Virus record (IMG/VR): IMGVR_UViG_3300028392_002123
DNA length: 64,000 bases
Reading direction: 5' to 3' (one strand)
Source of the DNA: a virus
Lineage: Duplodnaviria > Caudoviricetes
Positions 4,292 through 32,857 of this stretch are shown piece after piece. The notes under the pieces are model-generated. The model ran no database searches and was not told the origin of the DNA. It saw nothing but the letters and a program-made list of their open reading frames with translations. Position 1 is the first letter of the stretch, and each line of letters begins with the position of its first letter. Both the position numbers and the translations under genes were made by a program.

Positions 4292-5180
4292 TTTACAATT
4301 AGATCCTAGTACAGGTAATTTATTTTATGCTGAACGAGTTATAAAAAAAGAACCTGTGAAAAAAGAAAAGAAATTCAGGATCGCTGTCTGTTACAGCGGC
4401 CAAGCTAGACATTGGCAGACCTGTGTGGATAACAATAAAAGATTTTTTGATAGTTGGACATCGCATCCTGAAACTGGCCTAGACATTGAAGTAGATTATT
4501 TTATACATACATGGGATCGTAACACTTGGCGCTTGCCCAAACAAGGACACGAACATTTTACTATAGAAAAACACAGGGATGCAGATTCAATTGAACAAGC
4601 ATATAGTCCAAAAGGTTTCATATGTGAAGAATTCGATGCTACCCAGTTCCCCCGAGCATGGGATCCTATGTTTTATAGCCATGCAAGAAGTTTGATGTTA
4701 AAGCGAGACTACGAGCTTAAAAACGATGTTAGATATGACATAGTTATTAAAGCAAGACTGGATGTGGTATATCCGCCGAGTATGCCTTTTCCCCTGCAAC
4801 GAGTATGGCCAGGCGTATGCTATACTTGTACACCTATAGGCAAGTTTCCCAGCGAATTTAATTACAATAATTTTGATGATGTATTATTCTATGGAGACAG
4901 TCCTACCATGGACCTAATAGGCGACATATATTTTAAACTTAGACAACAGCATACTTCTGCCTACATTGACAGCGTGGAAGCCACTGCTAACCTAGATGTT
5001 ACATTATGGTACGGGCCCGGCTGTTTAATATATGATCATTGCACAGACCTAGGAATACATCCAGACGGTAATAGAGTTATCGAATATGCAGTTGTAAGAA
5101 GTACTGCAACTGAAAAAAACTTAGATGGTATATACGACTATGACGAAATCAGAAAAAAATGGTTTGAGTGGTATATCTAA
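4272..5180 (+). CDS. Putative glycosyltransferase-like protein, family B
   Basis: IAVCYSGQAR, DYFIHTWD, YDIVIKARLD, DDVLFYGDS. Confidence 0.4.
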   Translation: MDMSLFDLQLDPSTGNLFYAERVIKKEPVKKEKKFRIAVCYSGQARHWQTCVDNNKRFFDSWTSHPETGLDIEVDYFIHTWDRNTWRLPKQGHEHFTIEKHRDADSIEQAYSPKGFICEEFDATQFPRAWDPMFYSHARSLMLKRDYELKNDVRYDIVIKARLDVVYPPSMPFPLQRVWPGVCYTCTPIGKFPSEFNYNNFDDVLFYGDSPTMDLIGDIYFKLRQQHTSAYIDSVEATANLDVTLWYGPGCLIYDHCTDLGIHPDGNRVIEYAVVRSTATEKNLDGIYDYDEIRKKWFEWYI

Positions 5181-6114
5181 ATCTATCTTAGATAGAATTG
5201 CTGGTCCAGGTCCGCAACTAGATAACGACGAATTGGAAATCATTTGCGACGGCGATTCATGGGTATTTGGCTGTGAAATCGTTGACCCTAAATTAAAAAA
5301 GAAACAGGATGATGACACACATCCAGGCAATTATGATTTTGAAGAAGCCAACGATCAATATCGCAGGCCTAGAATTTTTAGCCATCATCTCAGCAAACTA
5401 TTAAAATGTCGTGTAACAAACCTAAGTTGGCCCGCCGATGATAACAATACCATAGTTAGAAGAACAATAGAATATATTAGCAGTGAGTATATTGCAAAAA
5501 ATCGCAGTACAGATAATTTGTTTGTAATGATCGGATGGAGCAGTCCTGAAAGAAATAGCTTTTGGTACAAGGATGACACTATGAGTGCTCCTTTTAGACT
5601 GTGGCCTCAGGTAGCTCATTTTGACGCACCGGCACAAAAGAAATTTTGGGAATTATATGTACCATACCTATGGCACCCAGAAGAATACATGCCCAGGTAT
5701 GTATATAATGTAATACAATTCCAGAATTTCTGTAATGCACACAACATTAAATGGATGTGTTGGAATAGTTTTTATCAAACTCCTGCAAGAAATCCCAATG
5801 AATGGCATGATCTAGATGTACGAGAAGAATTATTAAAGTTGACTAACATGGTTGCTGGTTATCAATATCAATGCACAGATACTCCAGATATCAGACATAA
5901 CAGAATGAACAACTATTTAAATTTATGGAATACTGTTGATCCTCTACGTTTTTATAAAAAGGATCAGCCCAACAATACTTTTAAGAGTTATATAGAACAG
6001 CCTGATTTAGACATCAAAAATGTATTATGCGGATGGCATCCTAGTCCAGATAGTCACAAGGCCTGGGCTCGAGAGTTAGTTAGATATATTAAAGAAAACA
6101 ATTTATTGCCATGA
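5125..6114 (+). CDS. SGNH/GDSL hydrolase-like protein
   Basis: CDGDSW (block I Ser), MIGWS, C-terminal GWHPSPDSH; exact start uncertain. Confidence 0.6.
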   Translation: MVYTTMTKSEKNGLSGISKSILDRIAGPGPQLDNDELEIICDGDSWVFGCEIVDPKLKKKQDDDTHPGNYDFEEANDQYRRPRIFSHHLSKLLKCRVTNLSWPADDNNTIVRRTIEYISSEYIAKNRSTDNLFVMIGWSSPERNSFWYKDDTMSAPFRLWPQVAHFDAPAQKKFWELYVPYLWHPEEYMPRYVYNVIQFQNFCNAHNIKWMCWNSFYQTPARNPNEWHDLDVREELLKLTNMVAGYQYQCTDTPDIRHNRMNNYLNLWNTVDPLRFYKKDQPNNTFKSYIEQPDLDIKNVLCGWHPSPDSHKAWARELVRYIKENNLLP

Positions 6115-6956
6115 TTAAACATCTAGTCACAAATGGCTGTAGCTGGACGTCAGGCAATGAGCTAGAATTTGATCCTGAGTTTGATAGACTGCTACAACGA
6201 TTAAAATTAGTCAAAGTAGATTCTACTAATCCTCTTAACTGGAACTTAAATGACTTAGATGGAAACTGGGCAACAACATTTGATGTACTTTACAATCATT
6301 TAAATTGGTCGGGCTATCTTAAAGATAAAATCGGTGCAGAACAGCTGACAAATTTAAGCACAGGCGGCGGCAGTAATGCTAGAATTCTAAGAACAACCTT
6401 AGACTATGTATTAAAATTACCACAGGAACTACGCAAAGAAACATTAGTAGTAATCGGATGGACAGTCAGTGAACGAGATGAAATGTATATTGCCAACAGT
6501 TGGCAACGCTGGAATGCCACACAGCCATTTAATATAACTGCTGATCGTATTAAGATGCCCGATGATTCTTTGGTAGATAAAATTACTCGTATACAAGAAG
6601 ATTATATTGTATACCTTTACAATGATTATGCGGCCGCGGGCAAATATTTTCAACAATCATACTTACTGGCAAATCTATTAGAAAACCTAGGAATAAAATA
6701 TTTCTTTTTCAATGCGCTGCCAGCTTGGTGGGAATCTGGAGAATTGGAATTTAAAGTTGACGTTGGCAGAGAGTTTAAAGAACAAGTACACTGGCAAGAA
6801 ACACACAGTAATTGTCTTAGCAATAGTAATACAATGTATAAGTTTGTTAATGATCACAAATATCCTGTAGCTCCTTGTTTTCATCCCTTAAGTCAAGGAC
6901 ACTTAGCTTGGGCAAATTACCTCAATGAGGTTATGCTGGAAAGAAACATTATATGA
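6111..6956 (+). CDS. SGNH/GDSL hydrolase-like protein
   Basis: TNGCSW, NLSTGGGSN, VIGWT, CFHPLSQGH. Confidence 0.6.
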   Translation: MIKHLVTNGCSWTSGNELEFDPEFDRLLQRLKLVKVDSTNPLNWNLNDLDGNWATTFDVLYNHLNWSGYLKDKIGAEQLTNLSTGGGSNARILRTTLDYVLKLPQELRKETLVVIGWTVSERDEMYIANSWQRWNATQPFNITADRIKMPDDSLVDKITRIQEDYIVYLYNDYAAAGKYFQQSYLLANLLENLGIKYFFFNALPAWWESGELEFKVDVGREFKEQVHWQETHSNCLSNSNTMYKFVNDHKYPVAPCFHPLSQGHLAWANYLNEVMLERNII

Positions 6957-20449: not shown

Positions 20450-21847
20450 ATGAGCGATCCAAGTAAAACATTCTGTATCCTACCCTGGATACATTTAAGT
20501 ACAAGACCCAATGGGCACATGCGAGTTTGTTGTACAGCCAATGCCAGTAGCGTGGGCCCGACAAATGATAAAATACACGGCGGTGAAGTCGGCGTGTTAA
20601 AAAACGAAGATGGTAAACCAGCTAATCTCAATGTAACAGACTTCCTGTCAAGTTGGAATAATACTTACATGAAGAATACACGACTAAAAATGTTGGCAGG
20701 AGAAGAGCCGCCTAGCTGTGTTAAATGTTATAAAGAAGAACGCGAAGGACATAAGAGTAAACGCCAATGGGAAACTGCTTATTGGAAACAGCGTGTCGAC
20801 CTAGATCAACTAATAACCAACACACAGGAAGATGGCAGCGTGCCTCCGCATGTTGCTTATATTGACATGCGTTTTGGAACTAAATGTAACCTAGCCTGTG
20901 TTATGTGCAGTCCACATGATAGTAGCTTATGGGTACCGGAATGGAACGCAATTTATCCTGAAATAAAAAACCCCACTCTCAAAGAAAGTATGGGATGGAA
21001 TAACAAAGGTAAAGAAAATGGTGCCAGCTATAATTGGCACAAGAATAATCCTGAATTTTGGACGCAGTTATGGGATCAGATTCCCAACATGAAGCAACTT
21101 TATTTTGCCGGTGGCGAACCTTTGATTATTGAGGAACACTATGAAATTTTGGAACAATGTATTAAACGCGGTTATGCCAAAGACATGGAAATCCGATACA
21201 ACAGCAACGGAGTCGAATGGAGAGAAGACTTGTTCGACCTATGGAAGCATTTCAAACTCGTACGTTATCACTACAGCGTGGATGCTTTGGGAGAGCGCAA
21301 TGATTATATCCGATACCCCAGTAAGTGGCAACGAAACCTCGAAGCCTTTAGACAACTAGACGAAGAGACTAGCAGTAATGTAGAAGTCACTATTGCCTGT
21401 GCAGTACAGGCACTGAACATTTATTATATTCCTGAATTTTTAAAATGGAAATTGGAACACGGCTTTAAGAAGATTAACATGTGGCCATTCGGCGCAGGCG
21501 GCATCAACTATCACTTTGTTTACCACCCACCGCATTTAAATGTCAAAGTATTACCAGCTTGGTTTAAAGATGAAATAGAAGCCAAGTATGAAGAGTTTAT
21601 CCCATGGTGGAAAGAAAATTGGCAAAAAGGTGTGCCAGCGTGGCATCAAGGTCGAGTCACTGAAGAACAATGGCTAAATGCAGACTATGGAATTAGTAGA
21701 CTACGCGGCATGGTTAACTTTGCCAAGAGCGAAGACTGGAGCAATCGTTTACCAGAAATGAAAGAATATTTGGAAACATTGGACAAGCATAGAGGCACAG
21801 ACTTTTATAAAACATTTCCAGAAATGAAGGATATTTTTAATGGATAA
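20450..21847 (+). CDS. Radical SAM protein with N-terminal twitch-like domain
   Basis: FCILPW...RVCC...SCVKCY; CNLACVMC; AGGEP. Confidence 0.88.
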   Translation: MSDPSKTFCILPWIHLSTRPNGHMRVCCTANASSVGPTNDKIHGGEVGVLKNEDGKPANLNVTDFLSSWNNTYMKNTRLKMLAGEEPPSCVKCYKEEREGHKSKRQWETAYWKQRVDLDQLITNTQEDGSVPPHVAYIDMRFGTKCNLACVMCSPHDSSLWVPEWNAIYPEIKNPTLKESMGWNNKGKENGASYNWHKNNPEFWTQLWDQIPNMKQLYFAGGEPLIIEEHYEILEQCIKRGYAKDMEIRYNSNGVEWREDLFDLWKHFKLVRYHYSVDALGERNDYIRYPSKWQRNLEAFRQLDEETSSNVEVTIACAVQALNIYYIPEFLKWKLEHGFKKINMWPFGAGGINYHFVYHPPHLNVKVLPAWFKDEIEAKYEEFIPWWKENWQKGVPAWHQGRVTEEQWLNADYGISRLRGMVNFAKSEDWSNRLPEMKEYLETLDKHRGTDFYKTFPEMKDIFNG

Positions 21848-23171
21848 AATTGCTTGTTATTATACACTAGGTGGCATTAATTATAAAAATGGATTTGTAA
21901 CTAGTTGCCCACAACAAAGTGATCAGTTACATATCATTGAGAATACACAGGTAATCAAACCCAGTGAAATTATTAATAGTGCTGGATTTAAAAAACATAG
22001 ACAAGAAATGATGTCTGGCACTTGGAGTAAAGGCTGTCATTTATGTCAGGAAGTAGAAGAAGCCAACGCAGGTAAAACCATGCGTGATGATCAGCCAGCT
22101 GATGAAACTTACTACGATGCCGACACAGGCGCAATTAAGTTTGATGGTGTCCATCATGTGGAACTTCGTTTCAGTAATGCTTGTAACATGGCCTGCTTAC
22201 ATTGCAGTGAAGTGTACAGCAGTGGCTGGATGACCAAGTTAAAACACTACGAAGCAGATCAAGAAGATTGGGATAATAAACTTATACAATTAACAAGAGT
22301 CATGCATCGTGCTAATCCAGCTGATGATCTGAGTATAGGCATCAGTATAGAACAAATGACTGAAATTGTCACGGATCTAAATGCAAATTTTCCTTTAATA
22401 GAAAAAGTAGACTTTGCAGGCGGCGAAGTACTGTATCAAAAACAGTTTTTCCCCTGTCTAGAACTTCTGGGACAACATCCAAATGCCAAAAATATGACAT
22501 TGTGTTTCCACAGTAATTTTAATGCCAAGTTTGATCCAGCAAAGCTCTATGAATTACTACTGCCCTTTGGCAAAGTTACAATCATGATGAGCATTGACAG
22601 TGGTAAAAATATCTATCCTTATTTTAGAACCGGTGACTGGAACGTGTTAAAAACAAACATAGCGGCATTCAAAGCCTTGGACAAGTCCAAGAAATTTGAC
22701 ATGAACTTGGTTTGTACTACCAGTGCTTATCAAATCATGGACATTGAAGATGTCATGGAAAGCTTCCTAAGCTTGGACATTGATTGGATAAACAGCAGTA
22801 TTGTATACACTCCTAGATATCTAAGCCCTGCACTAATGATGCACAATTTTGAAGAACATGTTCGTGCAGACTTGGCCAAGGCAAGACAAGTTATAGACAA
22901 AGAAAAAGAAAAAAGATTTGCAGATTTGGAAACGTATTCCACGCTAAGATCATGGCGTAAAGGCAAACAACATTTTGCCGACATTGACAGCGCATACGAA
23001 GCCCTTGACAACATCGAGGATTACGTGTATAATTTTAAAACAGATATAAAACAATACGAAGCCTTTCTTGTGTACATAAGAAAGACTGATATGATATGGA
23101 AGCAAAGCTTCAATGATCATTTTACAAAATATCAATATATTGATAACAAAATAGTAAGGGTGACCCAATGA
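21840..23171 (+). CDS. Radical SAM protein with N-terminal twitch-like domain
   Basis: ACYY...SCP...GCHLC; CNMACLHC; AGGE. Confidence 0.85.
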   Translation: MDKIACYYTLGGINYKNGFVTSCPQQSDQLHIIENTQVIKPSEIINSAGFKKHRQEMMSGTWSKGCHLCQEVEEANAGKTMRDDQPADETYYDADTGAIKFDGVHHVELRFSNACNMACLHCSEVYSSGWMTKLKHYEADQEDWDNKLIQLTRVMHRANPADDLSIGISIEQMTEIVTDLNANFPLIEKVDFAGGEVLYQKQFFPCLELLGQHPNAKNMTLCFHSNFNAKFDPAKLYELLLPFGKVTIMMSIDSGKNIYPYFRTGDWNVLKTNIAAFKALDKSKKFDMNLVCTTSAYQIMDIEDVMESFLSLDIDWINSSIVYTPRYLSPALMMHNFEEHVRADLAKARQVIDKEKEKRFADLETYSTLRSWRKGKQHFADIDSAYEALDNIEDYVYNFKTDIKQYEAFLVYIRKTDMIWKQSFNDHFTKYQYIDNKIVRVTQ

Positions 23172-24016
23172 TAGATTTTTCAGCATCAAATAAATTATAT
23201 GAAACTAGAGACCCCAGTATAGAAGTTAATTTGTACAACTTTGATGGCTTGGATATTCCATTTAATCCAGAATGGACCAATATAGGAATTAACCTAAGTG
23301 GTGGTGCAGATAGTAGTTGTCTGCTAATGTTGTTGTCTAAGATAATTACTAGAACCGGCAGTAAGTGTCGCGTTCATGTTATTCAACATCTACGTTGCTG
23401 GAGTATTCGTCCCTGGCAGGGCCCAGTGGCCATGGCAGTATTCAATAAGTTCCAGGAATTATTTCCTAACATTGAATATATTCGTTATAAAAATTTTATA
23501 CCGGTTGGCTTAGAATGGGGTGTAATTGGACCAATTACCAAAGATGATAAAGGCAGAGATCGTAGCGGTGATCAAATTATTGTTGACGAGTTTAACAATT
23601 ATATGTTGTACACAGAAAAATTAGATGCTATGTATAACGGCACTAGTAGAAATCCAGATGTAGACTTTGCCAGTAAGATGATGAACAGAGAATTATCCCC
23701 CGAAGAAGGAAATCTCAAAGATATCATGTTTAAGAGATTGGGCGGATTGATTATTCTTCCATTTAAGTTTGTACGCAAGGATTGGATCGTTGCAGAATAC
23801 TATAGACAGGGCATGGAAGAACTTTATAACACCACACGTAGCTGTGAAGGCAACGTTGGCCATGCATCCAGTGCAGATATAATTCCTACCTTAGATGACT
23901 ATAAACCAGGACAGTATGTACCTGTTTGCAATGAATGTTTCTGGTGTAACGAACGTAACTGGGCAGATAGCAAGTTAGAGGAAACATTAAAACTTTTAGA
24001 GGATCAATCTAATTGA
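23168..24016 (+). CDS. QueC-like PP-loop (adenine nucleotide alpha-hydrolase) protein
   Basis: LSGGADS PP-loop; C-terminal TRSCE...CNECFWCNER Zn-binding pattern as in QueC. Confidence 0.55.
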   Translation: MIDFSASNKLYETRDPSIEVNLYNFDGLDIPFNPEWTNIGINLSGGADSSCLLMLLSKIITRTGSKCRVHVIQHLRCWSIRPWQGPVAMAVFNKFQELFPNIEYIRYKNFIPVGLEWGVIGPITKDDKGRDRSGDQIIVDEFNNYMLYTEKLDAMYNGTSRNPDVDFASKMMNRELSPEEGNLKDIMFKRLGGLIILPFKFVRKDWIVAEYYRQGMEELYNTTRSCEGNVGHASSADIIPTLDDYKPGQYVPVCNECFWCNERNWADSKLEETLKLLEDQSN

Positions 24017-25323
24017 CTGCCACGTTTTGTCCTATTCCATGGAATTTCCAAGCAATAAGAGCAAATGGTGACATAAGGATTTGCTGTCAAGCCAACACGA
24101 CTAAAAATCAAGGTGTTATACGCAAAGAAGATGGTACAGCATTTAATGCTGGCCGCGACGAGCTGGAACAAGCACGTAATGCCACACTGATGTCGGAAGT
24201 TAGAAAAAACATGCTAGCTGGTCGTTGGAGTGACGAATGTGGACGTTGCCAACGAGAAGAAGAAAATGGTCTAGTCAGCCGTCGTAGCTATGAAAATGAG
24301 CAGTGGAAATTTGACATAGAACGTGCTAGACAATTAACAAAAGATGACGGGAGTATAGACACCAAAGACTTTCCTGTGGTGTACTATGACCTGCGCTTTG
24401 GAAATTTCTGTAATTTAAAATGTCGTATGTGTGGACCCACAGACAGTAACGCTTGGTATGACGACTGGATTGAATTAACCGGTACAAATAAATTTAAAGA
24501 TACCAGCGGCATGATTACTATTACAAAAGTCGACAAAGGTTACCATGTGCCGGAATTTGAATGGTACAACTATGAACCATTCTGGACACAATTAGAACAA
24601 AATATGCAGAACATCGAACATGTATATTTTGCCGGCGGCGAGCCTATGTTAATTGAACGTCATTACGATTTTCTAGAACGTTGTGTAGAAGCAGGTGCTA
24701 GTAAAAACATGATCATTGAATACAACACTAACATGAGTACCTTGCCCAGTCGTGTTGTGAATCTATGGACACAGTTCAAACAAGTACGCATTGGTGCCAG
24801 CGTGGATGGCATGGGCGCAGTCTTAGAATATCAACGTAATCCCGCTAAATGGGAAAAGACTTTGACTAATCTTCAAAGAGTCGACGAACTGCCTCCAAAC
24901 ATTATCAGTTGGCTAGCATTTACAGTCACAGCTTATAATGTATTACACATGGTTGATTTTATGAAATGGAAGTTAACTGAAAGCGGATTTAAGAGAATAA
25001 ACAGTTCCTATAGAAGACCTATAGTAACATATCATGTTGCTCATCATCCTAAACATTTAAACATTAGAGTGTTGCCCAAAGAATTCAAACAAACAGTGGT
25101 CGACAAGTATACAGAATTTTTAGCATGGGTGGAGGAACATAAATTCGAACAGTATGTTGTCAAACATGCCAAAGAAATTGTAAACGGTGTTATAAGTTAT
25201 ATGAACAGTGAAGATTATAATCCTGAGCACTGGGATGAATTCGTTAAGTATACAACAGATTTAGATAAAATACGCAGAGAGAACTTAATAACAGTTGAGC
25301 CAGAATTTAAGAAATATATATGA
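24013..25323 (+). CDS. Radical SAM protein with N-terminal twitch-like domain
   Basis: TTG start; FCPIPW...RICC...ECGRC; CNLKCRMC; AGGEP. Confidence 0.87.
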   Translation: MTATFCPIPWNFQAIRANGDIRICCQANTTKNQGVIRKEDGTAFNAGRDELEQARNATLMSEVRKNMLAGRWSDECGRCQREEENGLVSRRSYENEQWKFDIERARQLTKDDGSIDTKDFPVVYYDLRFGNFCNLKCRMCGPTDSNAWYDDWIELTGTNKFKDTSGMITITKVDKGYHVPEFEWYNYEPFWTQLEQNMQNIEHVYFAGGEPMLIERHYDFLERCVEAGASKNMIIEYNTNMSTLPSRVVNLWTQFKQVRIGASVDGMGAVLEYQRNPAKWEKTLTNLQRVDELPPNIISWLAFTVTAYNVLHMVDFMKWKLTESGFKRINSSYRRPIVTYHVAHHPKHLNIRVLPKEFKQTVVDKYTEFLAWVEEHKFEQYVVKHAKEIVNGVISYMNSEDYNPEHWDEFVKYTTDLDKIRRENLITVEPEFKKYI

Positions 25324-26045
25324 ACAATTTATTACACGAATACGACACATTAGATCTATTAGACGGTAGTGTATTTCAAGTTACATGGGACTTGGGTCGT
25401 CGTTGTAATTACGACTGCTCCTATTGTCCTGTACATAGGCATGATAATCATAGTCCACACGCTACCTTAGAAGAATTAAAAAAGAACGCAGACTTTGTTT
25501 TTAAGTACATTGGCCTGTACATGAAGTATAGGAATTACAAAGAAGCCAGTATTAGTTTTACCGGAGGTGAACCCACTGTTAATCCTAATTTTATTCCCTT
25601 TATTAAATATCTCAATGAGACTTATCAAGCAAATTATAAAGATGATTATCTGTGTACATTTGCCTTGACCAGCAATGGTGCAATGAGCGAAAAGATGGCC
25701 AAGGCTGTATTAGAAAATTTTAGTCATATCACTATCAGTTATCACACAGAAGCAGATCAAACACTAAAACAACAAGCATTAGATCGTATTGTGCAAATAT
25801 TCGAAGGTGGCCCTGCTAACTTATGTACAATTAGTATCAATGTTATGTTTCATGCTCAATACTTCGACGAGTGTATAGAAGTCTGTAACAAATTAGATGC
25901 CGCAGGAGTTACTTATGTGCCGCGTGTTATTGGAGAAGATCCTGATAGTCGTCCTAGTTTTGCCCATAAATATTCTGATGAACAATTAGCTTGGATGAAA
26001 GACTATTGGGATCGTAAAAATAAGAAAGTAAACGAAAATGTCTGA
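25320..26045 (+). CDS. Radical SAM protein, core domain only (apparent N-terminal half of a split gene)
   Basis: VTWDLGRRCNYDCSYC, FTGGEP; aligns by eye with the N-terminal part of 30513-31679. Confidence 0.8.
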   Translation: MNNLLHEYDTLDLLDGSVFQVTWDLGRRCNYDCSYCPVHRHDNHSPHATLEELKKNADFVFKYIGLYMKYRNYKEASISFTGGEPTVNPNFIPFIKYLNETYQANYKDDYLCTFALTSNGAMSEKMAKAVLENFSHITISYHTEADQTLKQQALDRIVQIFEGGPANLCTISINVMFHAQYFDECIEVCNKLDAAGVTYVPRVIGEDPDSRPSFAHKYSDEQLAWMKDYWDRKNKKVNENV

Positions 26046-26475
26046 TGAAAAGAAACTAGGTATGAAAATTGGCCGTCCATGTTGTGGCGGCCGCACAATG
26101 TGTTTTAGCAAGGGCGAGGAAAGTATTCGCGGAACCTTTAGTGGCAAGCGCGAATTCAAAGGTTGGCATTGTAGTGTTAACTGGTTTTTCTTTCATATAG
26201 AACAGCAAACTGACAAAGTGTTTCATCATCAAACATGCCAAGCACAATTTGGAGAGACTCGCGGACCTATAGGTACACTATCGGAAAGCGACAAGATTCT
26301 TGAAGAATTGGAACGTAATCTTAGAGAAGAAACAATGCCAACAATTATCTGTCCAAAAAAGACCTGCGGTTGTGGTATGTGTGCTCCTAAGAGCATGGAC
26401 AAAGAAGAATACAAACGTGTATTGTTCCAGCACATAGACAGTAGTCCCTTTAACAATTCATTGTCCTTAAAATGA
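26038..26475 (+). CDS. Cys-rich auxiliary Fe-S (SPASM-like) domain protein (apparent C-terminal half of a split gene)
   Basis: GRPCCGG, WHCSVN...QTC, ICPKKTCGCGMCAPK; resembles the C-terminus of 30513-31679. Confidence 0.55.
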   Translation: MSDEKKLGMKIGRPCCGGRTMCFSKGEESIRGTFSGKREFKGWHCSVNWFFFHIEQQTDKVFHHQTCQAQFGETRGPIGTLSESDKILEELERNLREETMPTIICPKKTCGCGMCAPKSMDKEEYKRVLFQHIDSSPFNNSLSLK

Positions 26476-28403
26476 AAATAGGCATCTTTGGTGGCGAGTA
26501 TGTACATAAGCATACCGCAGAAAACTTTACACCTAGTTGGGTACAAATACTATCTAAAAAATATGATGTAACACTAATAGGTAGCATAGACATAGACATG
26601 TTGTCTCTGTATACAACATTTGTCGATCGTGCCAGAGATTTTGATCAAGTTATTTTTGTTGCACCTGCTGATAACAAGTTGTCAAACTCAAATTCAGATG
26701 CTGTAAGAGATGCTATAGTGGCATTAGAAAAAGCACATTCAGTGACTATTTCATCAAGCGATTTCATAAAACATTTATTTGAAAAAGAAGCAAATAAGTT
26801 TACAAGAAAATCTTTGTTAGATTTAATCATAGCTGATATAAAAGATTTTCGCCCTGATACTATAATAATTAATTCTCATTTTTATAATGATAATTTAGGC
26901 TTAAATGCCATTAAAAAATTAGAAGAAAAATCATGGGGTTTAGATCCTTGGCCCGCAGATACAAAATTAGGCCACGATTCTAGGCAATGCTACTTAACTA
27001 AAGAAAACAACGAGATACTGGCCGCAGAAGTAGAGTCTTGGTTAACTGGCACAAAAGTTTTTATAGATATTAACAAGTATGTAGTGCCTACTGTGGAATC
27101 TATAGAATATTTTTTAACTCACGAAGCAAGAAAACTAAGAAGACAGCAGTATAAGAATTTTGAATCCAGTGCAACATACTGCTATTATCCTTTCAAAGAA
27201 ATAGCAATCAAAGAGTACAGGGGTACAGAACTCTTGGCCTTTTGGCCGTGTTGCATGATGGGAAATCAAATCAATGATCGTAAAACATTCAATGTATTAG
27301 ATGTAACGAATCCTGGACAATATACGCCACAGGAAATGTACGATCATCCTAGAATGCAACTATTAAGATCGAATAAACTATTAGGCATACGAGATAAAGC
27401 CTGTGAAACATGTTGGGATCAGGAAAATAGAGGATTGGATTCTTTTAGAGTAATGTCAAAAGAACCTGCAGACATTGAAGACGGCCTAACAGAAATCAAT
27501 GATTTGTACATGATAGATATGACTGCCAGTAATATATGCAATCTCAGATGCAGAATGTGTACTCCCAGTGCCAGCAATTTATTAATGATGGACTACAAAT
27601 ATTTTGAAGAAAACAATCTTATCGAAGATGTTAACAAATCTCTTAGAGGAAGATTCTATCACAGCGTACCATATAAAGCAACTGAAAGCAAACAATGGTC
27701 TTGGCTAATGGAAAATACAGATCGTATACGTGTGCTCAAGGCCAGCGGCGGCGAGCCACTCTATGACGGCAAGGTAATTCAATTATTACAACGTTATATA
27801 GAAACCGGTTCGGCACAGCAGACTAGATTATCTTTTCATACTAATGCAACTCAATTCAATGACGCTGTCATTGATATATTGAGTAAGTTTAAAAGCAACG
27901 AACATACTTTTAGTATAGATGGCGCAGATAAAGTATATGAGTACATTAGATATCCTGCTACCTTTGATGAACTAGAAACTAGTGTAAACAACTATATAAC
28001 AAAACTAGATAACATTGCAAATACCATGCATTTTAATTGTGTGGTTAGTTCTTTGAATGTTCTTAATCTAAACAGTTTATTTGACTGGGCGGAAAAGATT
28101 TCTGATAATCCGTTTGTCAATCTCAGCGAATTGTATCCTCCTGACAGAGGTACAGCAGTAAAACATTTACCAAAGCATTTATTAGAGTTGGCTCGACAAC
28201 GCCTTGAACCTTATATAAACACACCAAAGAATATGCCTAACCTAAGTGTTATCAATATGATTACATTATTGAATACTGCTATTGATAACAATCAAGAAAA
28301 CAAAGAACTTATGTTAAAAGAAATAACTTTGTTTGATGAATCTAGAAATCAAAATTTTAAAGATTTTCTAGATCCTGCACTAGTGGAGTGGCTATGCAGG
28401 TAA
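26472..28403 (+). CDS. Degenerate SGNH-like domain fused to twitch-type radical SAM domain
   Basis: N-terminal ~220 aa resemble the neighbour 28394-29137; then CYYPF...WPCC...ACETCW; CNLRCRMC; SGGEP. Confidence 0.8.
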   Translation: MKIGIFGGEYVHKHTAENFTPSWVQILSKKYDVTLIGSIDIDMLSLYTTFVDRARDFDQVIFVAPADNKLSNSNSDAVRDAIVALEKAHSVTISSSDFIKHLFEKEANKFTRKSLLDLIIADIKDFRPDTIIINSHFYNDNLGLNAIKKLEEKSWGLDPWPADTKLGHDSRQCYLTKENNEILAAEVESWLTGTKVFIDINKYVVPTVESIEYFLTHEARKLRRQQYKNFESSATYCYYPFKEIAIKEYRGTELLAFWPCCMMGNQINDRKTFNVLDVTNPGQYTPQEMYDHPRMQLLRSNKLLGIRDKACETCWDQENRGLDSFRVMSKEPADIEDGLTEINDLYMIDMTASNICNLRCRMCTPSASNLLMMDYKYFEENNLIEDVNKSLRGRFYHSVPYKATESKQWSWLMENTDRIRVLKASGGEPLYDGKVIQLLQRYIETGSAQQTRLSFHTNATQFNDAVIDILSKFKSNEHTFSIDGADKVYEYIRYPATFDELETSVNNYITKLDNIANTMHFNCVVSSLNVLNLNSLFDWAEKISDNPFVNLSELYPPDRGTAVKHLPKHLLELARQRLEPYINTPKNMPNLSVINMITLLNTAIDNNQENKELMLKEITLFDESRNQNFKDFLDPALVEWLCR

Positions 28404-29137
28404 TCGGTATTTTTGGAGACAGTTGGGCTAGCCATACCATGCCCAATACACCGGGAATAGGTTGGCAACAAATTGTCAAAGAGCACTACGATGGTCCTGA
28501 CTATTTCGTGGACAACTATGCTCGGCCTGGAAGTAGTTTATATTTTTCTTATGAAAATTTTTTAGTGCATCACCATAAATTTGACAAAATTATTTTTGTT
28601 GTAACTTCATCCGGAAGATTGCTTCTCCCTTACGGATGTGAAGTATGTAATGATGGTCTTACAGATAATGTTACACGACATGTTAATACATATTTTACTG
28701 CTAATAGTTTATTAAAAAAGTTGCCCGATGATCCAAAATATGATCGAGATAGAAAAATTCTAGAAGCCGCTGTAGCTTATTTTACATACATATATGATAT
28801 AAACGAACACAGACATTACAGTAAATTAATGATAGAAGAAATAAGAAGAATACGACCAGATGCTCTTATTGTTCCAATCACAGTTGATGAAAGAATACCA
28901 GGATTTGAACATCCATGCTTGCATGAAATTATCAATGAAGTCGAATTAACCTACTGGGGTATTACCGGCGATGACATAGAATCCATGGTAGAACTTAGAA
29001 GCTGTCATATGAGCAAAGAGAACAACGAAATATTTGCAAAAAAAATAATTACGTGGATTGATACCGGACATTGGACTCCGTTGAGTGTCAATGAGTTTGT
29101 AAATCCTTTGTTACCATGGAAAGAATATTTTAAATGA
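28394..29137 (+). CDS. SGNH/GDSL hydrolase-like protein
   Basis: GIFGDSW, NYARPGSS, RSCHMSKENN. Confidence 0.55.
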   Translation: MQVIGIFGDSWASHTMPNTPGIGWQQIVKEHYDGPDYFVDNYARPGSSLYFSYENFLVHHHKFDKIIFVVTSSGRLLLPYGCEVCNDGLTDNVTRHVNTYFTANSLLKKLPDDPKYDRDRKILEAAVAYFTYIYDINEHRHYSKLMIEEIRRIRPDALIVPITVDERIPGFEHPCLHEIINEVELTYWGITGDDIESMVELRSCHMSKENNEIFAKKIITWIDTGHWTPLSVNEFVNPLLPWKEYFK

Positions 29138-30285
29138 AACACTATTGTCCTTTACCTTTTAATCATCTTGCTATTAGACCCAATGGTAATGTGTATCCTT
29201 GCTGTTTTTTCCGTTGGGAAGAAACCCCTGCAGATATGACATTAGACTATCCCGATTTGTTTAATTCGCATCCTTTTATGAAACAGATTAGAGAAGATCT
29301 GCGAGAGGACAAACCCATTGCTGGATGCAGTAAATGCTATGAAGCCGAAGAGCTAACGGGCAAGAGTATGCGATTAGATTACCTAGCTGACACTAAATTA
29401 GGATTGAGTACAACTCCACCAGAAAAAGAAGAATTAAAGTATGTAGACCTATCATTGAGCAATGTCTGTAATAATAAATGTAGGATGTGTAGTTATGAGC
29501 TGAGTACAAGTTGGTACAGCGACACTAAAAAATTAGGAGTTGAAATTCCACGCGGTTTGATTAAAAACGGTAATCCTTTAGAGGGTTATGATTTATCTAA
29601 ACTAACTTATATTAAGATGATTGGCGGTGAGCCTTTAATGGAACAAGAAAAGTTTATCGACATACTCAAACAATGTAATTTGCCTGAATTAACTATTTTA
29701 ATTACTACTAACACTACAGTAAGGCCAAATGCAGAGCTACAGGCTTTGTTAGATCAATGTAAGCGTATAAAGTGGAATTTTAGTGTAGACGCATATGGCA
29801 CACTAAATGATTTCCTACGTAAAGGCAGTAAATGGCAGGAAGTTGCTGATAACCTAGATTGGTATATCAATCGTTATGGCAAGGATACAAACGTGCATGC
29901 CGTGGTCAGCATCTATAATATTAATACTTTTTACGAACTTAATACATATATTAAAACAAGACATCCAAAGAGCTATATCTCATTTGTAACTGCCGATGGG
30001 CCGAGTTGGATGATGATTGCTAATTTGCCTGAACGTGTCAAAGAGACAATAAAAAATAAATTAGAAATAGAAAATGCCAAACTACCTATTCCTAACTTTA
30101 ATGTTATCATTGAAGATATGATGAAACCCGGGGATTTTTATTCTTTTGTTCACATGGACAAGCGATTAAATCTAATCAGAGAAGAACATTGGATCGAGCA
30201 TAATCCAGAACTATATGAACTGATCAAAGATGAATTTGATCCATTCTACGCATCAGTGGATCCTACGGAACCTATCTATAAATAA
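29134..30285 (+). CDS. Radical SAM protein with N-terminal twitch-like domain
   Basis: YCPLPF...YPCC...GCSKCY; CNNKCRMC; IGGEP. Confidence 0.87.
   Translation: MKHYCPLPFNHLAIRPNGNVYPCCFFRWEETPADMTLDYPDLFNSHPFMKQIREDLREDKPIAGCSKCYEAEELTGKSMRLDYLADTKLGLSTTPPEKEELKYVDLSLSNVCNNKCRMCSYELSTSWYSDTKKLGVEIPRGLIKNGNPLEGYDLSKLTYIKMIGGEPLMEQEKFIDILKQCNLPELTILITTNTTVRPNAELQALLDQCKRIKWNFSVDAYGTLNDFLRKGSKWQEVADNLDWYINRYGKDTNVHAVVSIYNINTFYELNTYIKTRHPKSYISFVTADGPSWMMIANLPERVKETIKNKLEIENAKLPIPNFNVIIEDMMKPGDFYSFVHMDKRLNLIREEHWIEHNPELYELIKDEFDPFYASVDPTEPIYK
30277..30284 (+). promoter_or_regulatory. T4-like late promoter motif TATAAATA
   Basis: Exact motif, 5 nt before ATG 30290. Confidence 0.5.
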
Positions 30286-30289
30286 GTTC

Positions 30290-30520
30290 ATGGACATTAA
30301 AGATTTACCATTAAGAACATTACAGTTAGAAGCAGCCAGAGTTATCAGCTCTATGGAAGCAACCAACGATAACATACATAAATTTAACAAGGCAAGCAGA
30401 CATAATAGTCAAGGTTGGTACATAGCCGCTGTCGAATGGTACGTAAAAGAATACGGCGGCATGCCCAGCGAAACAGGACCGGGAAAAGACATTAAGTTTG
30501 TCTATGAACAAGATGAGTGA
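30290..30520 (+). CDS. Small hypothetical protein
   Basis: 76 aa from ATG 30290 (MDIKDL), directly after a TATAAATA motif; overlaps the next gene start. Confidence 0.65.
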   Translation: MDIKDLPLRTLQLEAARVISSMEATNDNIHKFNKASRHNSQGWYIAAVEWYVKEYGGMPSETGPGKDIKFVYEQDE

Positions 30521-31679
30521 TTTAAAAACCAGTGAATACGACTTTACTAAGATTCCCTACAGTGACTTAGTAAGAGTTGGACAAAGAACAATGCTGTACC
30601 GAGACATGTTCAGTGTGTCTTGGCTATTAGGACGTTATTGTAATTACCGCTGTAGCTATTGCTGGCCCTATGCTCGCAGTGATACAAAAGATCACAGACC
30701 CACTCCTTTAATGTTACACACAGTGGATGAAATTAAACGACAAGCTCGCGAGCGCGGATTTAATAGTTTTCACTTTAGCCTAAGTGGCGGAGAGCCTACA
30801 TTCCATCCGGCTTACATTGATATTTTAAATCATTTAAACAATGATGTACATAATACAAACTATACCAGCGTACATATGACATCAAACATGAGCCGTCCAT
30901 TAAAGTGGTTTGAAACACAGTACGTACCAGCAGTTAAGAACTTTCATCGTGCTAGTATTACTGCCAGTTGTCATCGTGAGCATGTTGACACAGATAAAAA
31001 GGTCGAAGAGTTTGCTGACAAGTTGGTGCTATGTCAAGAATACGACACGCAGATAACTATTAACATGGTCATGGTACCGGAACAGTTCAATGAGATCTAT
31101 GACTTGGCATTATACTTTCATAACAGAGGCATCAACGTAACACTCAAACCGCAGAGCGATCCAACTGCTAGTCGTGTAGTAGATGGTTATACTCCTGAGA
31201 TGTTGGCTAAGTTACATAATGGTATGCCACAACGTGCATTCACAGAAGTTAAAGCCGCAAGAGCAGACTTGGTTAAACGTCCCAAGCCTACGTATATGAT
31301 TGACAGAGCAGATCCTGGATTCAAGCAACAAGCAGGTGTTGATGCACACTACCAAGTGGAGTTCATTGACAAAGAAGGCAAGCCGTGGTTCATGGATCAA
31401 GCTGAGCGTTTTAATGCATTTAACTTTAATAACTTTAATCAGTGGGAATGTAGTAGTGGCTATCGAAGTATCATTATTCGTGAACCAGATGGCACAGTAA
31501 AGCGTAGTTATAGCTGTAGCGAAGTTCCATTGGGACACATTGAAACAGGCTTTAAGTTATACGACAAGCCCATGCCCTGCGGTGGAACTAGCTGTGTAAG
31601 TAGTGCTGACAGTAAAATTCCTAAACGTGCGCCTGGAACAAAGTTACCGTTGTTCCCTGGGGATAAAACCTATGAATGA
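30513..31679 (+). CDS. Radical SAM protein with C-terminal Cys domain
   Basis: VSWLLGRYCNYRCSYC, LSGGEP; C-terminal WECSSG...YSC...PCGGTSC. Confidence 0.87.
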   Translation: MSDLKTSEYDFTKIPYSDLVRVGQRTMLYRDMFSVSWLLGRYCNYRCSYCWPYARSDTKDHRPTPLMLHTVDEIKRQARERGFNSFHFSLSGGEPTFHPAYIDILNHLNNDVHNTNYTSVHMTSNMSRPLKWFETQYVPAVKNFHRASITASCHREHVDTDKKVEEFADKLVLCQEYDTQITINMVMVPEQFNEIYDLALYFHNRGINVTLKPQSDPTASRVVDGYTPEMLAKLHNGMPQRAFTEVKAARADLVKRPKPTYMIDRADPGFKQQAGVDAHYQVEFIDKEGKPWFMDQAERFNAFNFNNFNQWECSSGYRSIIIREPDGTVKRSYSCSEVPLGHIETGFKLYDKPMPCGGTSCVSSADSKIPKRAPGTKLPLFPGDKTYE

Positions 31680-32305: not shown

Positions 32306-32857
32306 ATGAAAATTTTAATTGCAGGAAATCCTAGCTACGGCGTAGCACAATCGATTAAAGAAGAACTAAGTATGCACGAACTTGTATTTGCAAGTCGTAG
32401 TTCAGGTTTTGATTTAACAAAAGCAGAAGTTCAGCAACAATTTGCAGATTTATGTGCGGATGCAGACACAGTTATATTATGTAGTGCTTTATGGAAATTT
32501 AATCAAACTCTATTGTTAGAAGCAGTTTATAAAAAATTAAAAGCATTGAATAAACGAACATTGATTATAGCAATTGGTAGCACCACAGACAGAGTAATGA
32601 AAGCCACTGATTGGTTGTACAATGCCGAAAAGAAAGCATTGCGAGATTATTGTAATAGTTTAGGTATTGCAGGCGTTTGGTCAGCAGGGCCTAGAGTTAC
32701 TTTAATCAGTTTTGGCACATTGAGTAATATGCAGGCCAAACATCCTGACAGAAAAACAATGCCAATAAAAAAGGCCGCCGAGTATATTAAATGGATACTC
32801 GAACAGCCTTCGGATTTACACATTAACGAAATTAGTGTAGATCCCTTACAAGCCTAA
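32306..32857 (+). CDS. Short-chain dehydrogenase/reductase-like protein
   Basis: N-terminal Rossmann-like strand (ILIAGN..YG), IGS, YNAEK (YxxxK). Confidence 0.6.
   Translation: MKILIAGNPSYGVAQSIKEELSMHELVFASRSSGFDLTKAEVQQQFADLCADADTVILCSALWKFNQTLLLEAVYKKLKALNKRTLIIAIGSTTDRVMKATDWLYNAEKKALRDYCNSLGIAGVWSAGPRVTLISFGTLSNMQAKHPDRKTMPIKKAAEYIKWILEQPSDLHINEISVDPLQA

Follow-up and report, generated by a model that had tools for sequence, protein, structure and literature searches.

Why would a phage enzyme carry, fused to its N-terminus, what looks like an inactivated relative of the protein encoded by the very next gene? The question is raised by a locus in a 64,000-nucleotide stretch of viral DNA (Duplodnaviria; Caudoviricetes; IMG/VR record IMGVR_UViG_3300028392_002123), the whole of which is referred to here as the window. 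An initial reading made from the letters without database searches (the sequence-only reading) had described two open reading frames (ORFs), 26472-28403 and 28394-29137, and both were found as described. The first, P0001, had been proposed to be a catalytically dead SGNH domain joined to a radical S-adenosylmethionine (SAM) enzyme, and the second, P0002, an intact SGNH paralogue. We refer to the family shared by the two SGNH-like parts (residues 1-215 of P0001 and the ORF 28394-29137) as family G. The fusion proved to be an inherited trait of a single clade, accompanied by live family-G genes, and the dead domain may serve as an adaptor or scaffold. The features that carry the argument are listed below in window coordinates.

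26472-28403, + strand: fusion gene P0001, a two-domain ORF of 643 amino acids (aa)
26472..27116, + strand: dead family-G domain, P0001 residues 1-215 (BLASTP, phmmer and AlphaFold2 fold)
26490..26498, + strand: G7-G8-E9 replacing the family G-D-S, with the nucleophile Ser lost (profile alignment, MAFFT)
26697..26909, + strand: helical insert, residues 76-146, hypervariable, with residues 71-110 poorly predicted
26976..26993, + strand: D169-S-R171-Q-C173-Y174, the remnant of block V, with D/R/C retained and His replaced by Tyr (alignments)
27117..27170, + strand: linker, residues 216-233, without an internal Met able to yield a separate radical SAM protein
27171..28403, + strand: N_Twi_rSAM enzyme, residues 234-643 (NCBIfam NF033640, Pfam Radical_SAM)
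28394..29137, + strand: live family-G paralogue P0002/P0200, with GDS at 28415-28423 and His207 at 29006-29008

The first ~220 aa of the fusion had been said to mirror the neighbouring gene. Pairwise BLASTP supports this for residues 1-215, with a 26% identical alignment (E 1e-13) between P0001 residues 3-214 and P0002 residues 6-248. When free family members are used as a profile, the fused relative P0042 is recovered with E 3e-29 among 5.8 billion proteins, and the similarity between P0001 and P0002 is therefore far beyond chance. In the profile alignment, the Ser of G-D-S and the His of R-x-C-H are both present in 256 of the roughly 270 family matches. In P0001, G7-G8-E9 stands opposite G10-D11-S12 of P0002 and C173-Y174 opposite C206-H207; the columns of the nucleophile Ser and the catalytic His are thus occupied by E9 and Y174. 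The conserved block II Asn/Gly and the Thr/Arg after strand 3 are likewise missing, while D-x-R-x-C and E-N-N are retained. P0135, another fused relative, has K and G at the Ser and His columns. The two replacements pointed out initially (GDS to GGE, CH to CY) are thus confirmed, and the N-terminal domain is, as judged by these residues, catalytically degenerate. The neighbour, in turn, is an intact paralogue, as proposed, with both GDS and His207 in place. Its start is most likely the ATG at 28394, as originally read, which gives 247 aa rather than the 249 aa of the alternative ORF start at 28388; a GGAG lies 6-9 nt upstream, and the gene overlaps the P0001 stop by 10 nt.

It might be argued that such a domain still catalyses a reaction through other residues, for example with Cys173 as the nucleophile, and that P0001 is a true bifunctional enzyme. 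Cys173 and Arg171 are indeed found in every dead copy. However, Ser, His, the block II Asn/Gly and the block III Thr/Arg are all lost together, and the evolutionary rate is raised. Moreover, Cys173 is equally conserved in live members, beside the His, and is therefore a family feature and not a replacement. We regard residual catalysis as very improbable.

Structure prediction supports the proposed fold for both copies. The AlphaFold2 model of P0002, built on 35 homologues, has a predicted local distance difference test score (pLDDT) of 92. In an exhaustive VIA fold search, the first 43 of the 50 best-ranked structures are of SGNH type or related esterases, the best being 4rw0_B (Z 11.3, root-mean-square deviation (rmsd) 3.9, 149 residues), and the top Foldseek matches are all GDSL enzymes (E ~1e-4). 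The N-terminal domain of P0001, modelled on its own without the radical SAM part, reaches pLDDT 82 (core >90, residues 71-110 at 50-55); its top 34 VIA matches are all SGNH/GDSL, with 4rsh_A at Z 10.0 (rmsd 3.3, 132 residues). Both family-G copies thus have a predicted SGNH-like fold.

Sequence-based recognition of this fold is weaker. A sequence-profile search of the PDB with family G gave no significant match; 4rw0, the best structural match, was also the one SGNH chain that sequence comparison picked up, with its GDS lined up with that of family G. Sub-threshold Lipase_GDSL matches occur in 12 of 35 family-G members (best E 0.022 and 0.057). Neither P0001 nor P0002 reaches the gathering score of the Pfam SGNH models (Lipase_GDSL, Lipase_GDSL_2), and no NCBIfam SGNH model reaches its threshold either; hence the label 'SGNH' rests on the fold and on the alignment of block I and II motifs, not on membership of a named family. 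PHROGs holds no family for P0002 or for the dead domain, and a tblastn search of INPHARED phages returned no match for P0002 and for P0001 just two weak radical SAM matches.

Family G shares with the SGNH/GDSL superfamily (4rw0, E. coli TesA/TAP 1ivn, CE2/CE3 acetyl-xylan esterases, PatB/OatA O-acetyltransferase domains) a three-layer alpha/beta/alpha fold, at Z 9-11 over 130-160 residues. Also common to both are a GDS ending strand 1 (block I; G10-D11-S12 of P0002, at least 90% conserved in the family), a Gly/Ser-rich block II, and a C-terminal-side His that precedes a long helix. In contrast, the G-x-N-D of block III is absent: T73-x-x-G-R77 follows strand 3, and the conserved Asn is missing. 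In block V, His207 is conserved with a near-invariant Arg at -3 and Asp/Glu at -5 (D-x-R-x-C-H, not DxxH), so that Arg occupies the place of the DxxH Asp. A helical insert of ~70 residues is a further difference. All relatives found so far are viral. Family G is thus an unnamed, non-canonical SGNH-fold family restricted to phages and viruses.

The nearest named family is possibly DUF6071 (PF19547). It is found on 15-20% of members in some of the viral clusters nearest P0002 (ESM Atlas), and a DUF6071 gene lies within 2 kb at three family-G loci. Two DUF6071 genes of the window (5125-6114 and 6111-6956) have an N-G-D-S-W start and N-x-S and His motifs that recall SGNH blocks. Comparison of family G with DUF6071 by hhalign was not significant (probability 0.6%), leaving kinship unsupported, and no family-G member matched the DUF6071 model even at E 10.

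The C-terminal part of P0001 matches NF033640 at 235.2 bits against a cut-off of 170, with residues 234-633 covering model positions 2-391 of 398. The CX3CX2C motif is formed by C356/C360/C363 (residues 356-363, 27537-27560), and the SAM motif is S425-G-G-E-P. As in NF033640, a Cys-rich module stands ahead of the CX3CX2C core of P0001: C237, C260, C261, C311 and C314, together with the core Cys and SGGEP, are invariant in the three fused proteins. These motifs identify the C-terminal part as an intact N_Twi_rSAM radical SAM enzyme with an N-terminal twitch-type Cys module. The same gene island encodes five other NF033640 paralogues. In the searches made, an extra N-terminal SGNH-like domain on an N_Twi_rSAM protein turned up in the fused clade only. 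We know of no N_Twi_rSAM member with a known reaction or partner.

How widespread is the fusion? A phmmer search of 1.84 billion representatives with the dead domain gave 154 family members, nearly all of them free proteins of 210-270 aa. A radical SAM part is present in just two of the family matches, the 643-aa P0042 and the 581-aa P0135. Relative to P0001, P0042 shows 90% identity in the N-terminal domain and 99% in the radical SAM part; for P0135 the figures are 45% over the whole protein and 57% for the radical SAM part. A profile search for longer family-G proteins revealed no other fusion of the family. P0135 belongs to a 90% cluster of 15 proteins, of which at least 10 are full-length; they derive from NCBI, JGI, ENA and Logan contigs up to 105 kb. 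In the maximum-likelihood tree, the fused radical SAM domains group together in a single clade (100/99 support) in the midst of unfused orthologues, which indicates one fusion event, inherited since.

These data leave hardly any room for the explanation that two genes were wrongly joined by assembly or read-through. The same architecture recurs in P0042 and in the P0135 cluster, in different assemblies and from different sources; P0001 itself is present on three contigs, and its domain junction is continuous in frame, with no stop, frameshift or internal Met. All that we found in favour of an artefact is one odd junction, in L085, a 2.5-kb marine contig with 3.8x coverage. Independent assemblies thus refute an assembly artefact. 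Since the fusion is inherited and the fold match of its N-terminal domain reaches Z 10.0, the locus represents neither an artefact nor a domain lacking the SGNH fold.

The contig L085 deserves a separate description. Its ORF at 1-1476 has a P0135-like radical SAM part, preceded by 62 residues of a carbamoyltransferase C-terminal-type fragment, in frame, at the place expected for the tail of the dead domain. The junction is either an assembly chimera or a real deletion that joined the island carbamoyltransferase to the radical SAM gene. In addition, two members of the P0135 cluster, P0187 and P0190, both 491 aa long, begin within the dead domain. These starts and the L085 fragment may reflect more erosion, gene-call effects or chimeras.

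Unfused orthologues of the radical SAM part show the state without the domain. Nine of them, 50-56% identical, were found (L083, with the same sequence as L088, L084, L086, L087 and L089-L093), and a tenth, L094, is partial. They are 406-439 aa long, start at about P0001 residue 231-233 and lie in islands syntenic with the window. Most are immediately preceded by the orthologue of the 145-aa gene found ahead of P0001 and immediately followed by that of 29134-30285; L091 and L093 have a homologue of 32306-32857 inserted before the latter. No family-G gene was found on either side of the unfused orthologues in L083, L084 and L086-L093, nor anywhere on two viral contigs of unfused lineages that were searched whole (both fragments). 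The radical SAM chemistry therefore proceeds without need for the domain. The fusion is limited to one clade, and the dead domain is an optional add-on, dispensable for the radical SAM enzyme. The tree shows that a free family-G gene was joined end-to-start with a radical SAM gene once, in the ancestor of the clade. P0135 also has Gly-Gly at the G-D-S position, and this feature shared with P0001 implies that the nucleophile was lost before the two lineages split. Their radical SAM parts are separated by 1.2 substitutions per site, and similarity of the N-terminal domains is still detectable.

The sequence-only reading treated the fusion as a Rosetta stone. In its favour, both parts exist separately elsewhere (as the unfused orthologues and as over 150 free representatives of family G), and the fusion itself recurs in three lineages from many assemblies. 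As to the separate parts being neighbours, 23 of 80 family-G loci have radical SAM genes within 6 kb, and no family-G gene stands beside the unfused orthologues of this particular radical SAM enzyme.

In each fused lineage seen, the contig also encodes one or two live family-G proteins. A live gene lies directly downstream in the window (P0002) and in L085, where two tandem copies follow the P0135-like gene. The live P0201 is on a contig equal in size (5053 bp) to that of the fused P0042, and the live P0006 and P0199 are on contigs equal in size (21268 and 17506 bp) to those of the fused P0185 and P0195; a search of viral contigs for the loci of P0006 and P0013 found none. The presence of the dead domain and that of a live neighbour are coupled.

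Dead family-G copies are also found outside the fused clade. A different radical SAM island (L103:6484-9516) contains a tandem array of four family-G genes. The third of them, P0108, has lost both Ser and His (G-N-H, C-F), and the other three are live. In the family tree P0108 is sister to a live copy of its own array, and its inactivation is therefore independent; its position among live copies means that dead-plus-live sets recur. A free dead protein, P0015 (L095:8001-8798), has G-N-G and C-Y at the two sites and a 35-residue N-terminal extension, and is 92-94% conserved on eight viral contigs. It is encoded in a different myovirus, between the tail sheath/tube and terminase genes and adjoining a TnsA-like endonuclease gene, far from any radical SAM gene. 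P0015 groups weakly with the fused domains (Shimodaira-Hasegawa-like approximate likelihood ratio test (SH-aLRT) support of 84-85, long branches). Persistence of dead family-G proteins as free genes speaks for some non-catalytic use.

For the dead domain, P0001 was compared with P0042 and P0135. The comparisons count amino-acid changes and give relative rates only. P0001 and P0042 differ at 26 positions in total:

insert, residues 76-146: 20 differences, 28%
rest of the N-terminal domain, 147 residues: 3 differences, 2%
radical SAM part, 411 residues: 3 differences, 0.7%

Between P0001 and P0135, residues 1-33 are 58% identical, compared with 57% for the radical SAM part, and the other core segments are 18-30% identical. 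In the family tree, dead branches are about twice the typical length. Taken together, the comparisons show what appears to be relaxed but present constraint on the alpha/beta core and none on the insert.

This pattern bears directly on the possibility, left open by the sequence-only reading, that the domain is kept to bind substrate. In such a lectin-like module the dead active site would hold an acylated sugar-like intermediate and hand it to the radical SAM domain. Several observations are consistent with this. In the three fused proteins, the former active-site loop that follows strand 1 (residues H14, A16-E17-N18, T20 and S22-W23) is invariant, and every dead copy retains the block V residues D169, R171 and C173. 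Among the structural matches is 2w9x, a family 2 carbohydrate esterase; non-catalytic binding by an esterase-fold active site is known in that family (as reflected in the title of 2w9x). However, the substrate pocket of SGNH enzymes is usually shaped by the helical insert region. If this pocket-wall role, assumed from SGNH enzymes generally, applies here, a hypervariable or deleted insert argues against conserved substrate binding and leaves a scaffold/adaptor or a relic. The oxyanion-hole positions of blocks II and III are also replaced, and the orthologous radical SAM enzymes have no such module. We therefore consider substrate binding unlikely; of the original pair 'substrate-binding or scaffold', it is the second member that we favour.

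A less probable but serious alternative to any role is that the domain is a decaying relic: an inactivated upstream family-G gene joined by loss of its stop, functionless and eroding, and surviving because any clean deletion would have to leave the radical SAM gene with its start and its translational coupling. The catalytic blocks have all been lost. The N-terminal domain changes 3-7 times faster than the radical SAM part, as measured for residues 34-165 within the P0135 cluster. The insert differs by more than a quarter between the otherwise near-identical P0001 and P0042, and in P0135 it is mostly gone (P0001 residues 69-118, ~50 residues, have no counterpart). The 491-aa proteins that start inside the domain, the unrelated fragment that takes its place in L085 and the functioning of unfused orthologues without it are further points in favour. 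Nevertheless, the domain has stayed in frame and free of stops while the radical SAM parts diverged to 57% identity, in phages, which shed useless DNA. Outside the insert, P0001 and P0042 show 98% identity in the core, residues 1-33 are conserved like the enzyme itself, the core is predicted with pLDDT >90, and at least 10 independent full-length copies exist in the P0135 cluster.

We favour the view that the dead domain is an accessory non-catalytic module, an adaptor or scaffold, and give this statement as a whole close to an even chance. It is favoured because the dead domain and the live neighbour come and go together, because the genes are translationally coupled and dead-plus-live sets recur, and because the core and the N-terminal 33 residues are conserved and the insert is not. 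The likeliest job of such an adaptor would be to dock the live paralogue, though this specific role is on balance doubtful. The most elaborate version is a tentative one and doubtful in its full extent: a prozyme-like adaptor that would pair with the live family-G enzyme and tether an esterase/acyltransferase to the N_Twi radical SAM enzyme in a channelling complex of phage sugar tailoring. In the favoured view itself, the alpha/beta core, above all the first 33 residues, is retained and the helical insert is free to vary or vanish. The dead domain would dock the live paralogue, encoded by the overlapping downstream gene, onto the radical SAM enzyme, and the resulting pseudoenzyme-enzyme pair would couple de-acylation or acyl transfer to the radical step on the same sugar-like intermediate. 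Since the orthologous radical SAM enzymes do without the dead domain, it is a refinement that is optional.

Several points weigh against the adaptor. The raised rate of residues 34-165, the loss of most of the insert in P0135, the 491-aa starts and the L085 replacement fit erosion equally well as a relaxed structural role, and the orthologues without the domain show that the radical SAM enzyme can dispense with it. The coupling of dead and live copies is probably a single phylogenetic event. In the family tree, the closest relative of the dead domain is not P0002, which excludes a recent tandem copy of P0002 as its source; consequently, a hetero-pair of the two is not implied by recent duplication.

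Does the fusion indicate that the SGNH and radical SAM families act on the same substrate, as initially proposed? Radical SAM genes lie within 6 kb at 23 of the 80 viral family-G loci examined. About 17 loci are in islands resembling that of the window; in most of these, family G lies towards the 3' end, and the gene that it directly precedes is usually the orthologue of 30498-31679. At the other 57 of the 80 loci, no radical SAM gene is nearby, ruling out that family G is always tied to such genes; sampled neighbours there include phosphomannomutase, NAD-dependent sugar epimerase/dehydratase, dNMP kinase and exoribonuclease. Consequently, no general 'same substrate' rule follows, family G is a general phage accessory enzyme, and the proposed link survives only within these islands, which recruit family G often, not always. 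With carbohydrate esterases and O-acetyltransferases among its fold matches, and sugar-nucleotide enzymes encoded by some of its neighbours, family G would most likely act on acylated sugars.

The phage that hosts the locus comes from a lake and is known from a 148-kb IMG/VR record with an estimated completeness of 42% (CheckV). One of the three contigs with P0001 is 340,548 bp long, and the host of the fusion locus is therefore an uncultured jumbo phage. The family B DNA polymerase that it encodes shares 44-47% identity with the enzymes of Sinorhizobium phage Phosso and Agrobacterium phage Atu_ph07. Positions 268-32857 (+ strand) form a single gene-dense island of 33 kb with radical-SAM and sugar-tailoring genes, and the fusion locus is close to its 3' end. 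Paralogue families within the island were resolved by all-against-all BLASTP combined with Pfam/NCBIfam scans. There are six N_Twi_rSAM enzymes (1255, 20450, 21840, 24013, the C-terminal part of 26472, and 29134), two additional radical SAM pairs (18186/19355 and 25320/30498), the two DUF6071 genes, sugar-activation genes, a carbamoyltransferase and a PP-loop protein. Two families, one of three and one of four members, have no Pfam/NCBIfam name, and family G, with its two members, is the seventh. The genes that flank the pair are:

26038..26475, + strand: upstream 145-aa gene, with an ATGA overlap with the fusion gene and no Pfam/PHROGs match
29134..30285, + strand: next N_Twi_rSAM paralogue, directly after the live family-G gene P0002

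The MoaA/viperin-like radical SAM protein encoded at 30498-31679 is by far the most conserved gene product of these islands: its orthologues are 69-93% identical over ~15 islands, compared with 25-30% for other island genes. It may be the core enzyme of the pathway.

Joined genes are seen elsewhere in these islands as well. In the window, 25320-26045 (a 241-aa truncated radical SAM core) and 26038-26475 (the 145-aa protein) are overlapping genes. They are also separate in L083, L084 and L086-L090, and form one protein in L032, L073 and L093 (392-425 aa) and in L091 (at least 370 aa, 5'-truncated). Two readings fit the pair: a split gene that has been conserved, or a fusion that has arisen repeatedly. 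The N_Twi radical SAM gene 21840-23171 and the PP-loop (QueC-like) gene 23168-24016 are fused in two related islands (L032:2344-4842 and L073:2260-4743; 827-832 aa), providing a second Rosetta-stone link in the island, that of the PP-loop enzyme with a radical SAM partner. The family-G-radical SAM fusion is thus one among several joins within tightly overlapping operons.

Dead paralogues that partner live enzymes are known as prozymes, as in the S-adenosylmethionine decarboxylase (AdoMetDC) and deoxyhypusine synthase of trypanosomatids. As with prozymes, a catalytically dead paralogue is kept here next to a live one, and such sets recur (the window clade and L103). Unlike prozymes, the dead family-G copy is covalently joined to an unrelated enzyme.

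Islands of the same kind have been reported before. Pelagimyophages and cyanomyophages have a host recognition cluster and radical-SAM/glycosyltransferase islands (Zaragoza-Solas et al. 2020, PMC7029224), and a T4-like environmental genome has 12 radical SAM genes (Nishimura et al. 2017, PMC5332604). The pelagimyophage/cyanomyophage islands and that of the window are alike in being large and variable, with glycosyltransferase/sugar genes and swappable radical SAM cassettes. Both papers describe the islands by gene content only, and neither 'SGNH' nor 'GDSL' occurs in the text of PMC7029224. In the literature searched for SGNH together with radical SAM or pseudoenzymes, we found no description of an SGNH-radical SAM fusion. 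The parts are of known kinds, namely the SGNH fold, N_Twi_rSAM and pseudoenzyme domains. What is new is family G as an SGNH-fold family, its fusion to a radical SAM enzyme, and the coupled dead and live copies.

Giant aquatic phages carry large islands full of N_Twi radical SAM enzymes. A stable fusion always accompanied by a live esterase-like paralogue is a rare sequence clue to partnerships in these islands, and it points to acyl handling on a sugar-like intermediate beside the radical step. It also defines a concrete trio for co-expression: the fused protein, its truncated form and the neighbour. Family G itself gains a fold assignment for more than 150 sequence clusters annotated so far only as hypothetical. 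Since the fusion is limited to one clade and the domain is dispensable, the locus is a useful handle and not a new principle. If, however, the prozyme-like adaptor proves true, dead-plus-live sets, which have arisen at least twice, would be a general route by which these islands build multi-enzyme machines.

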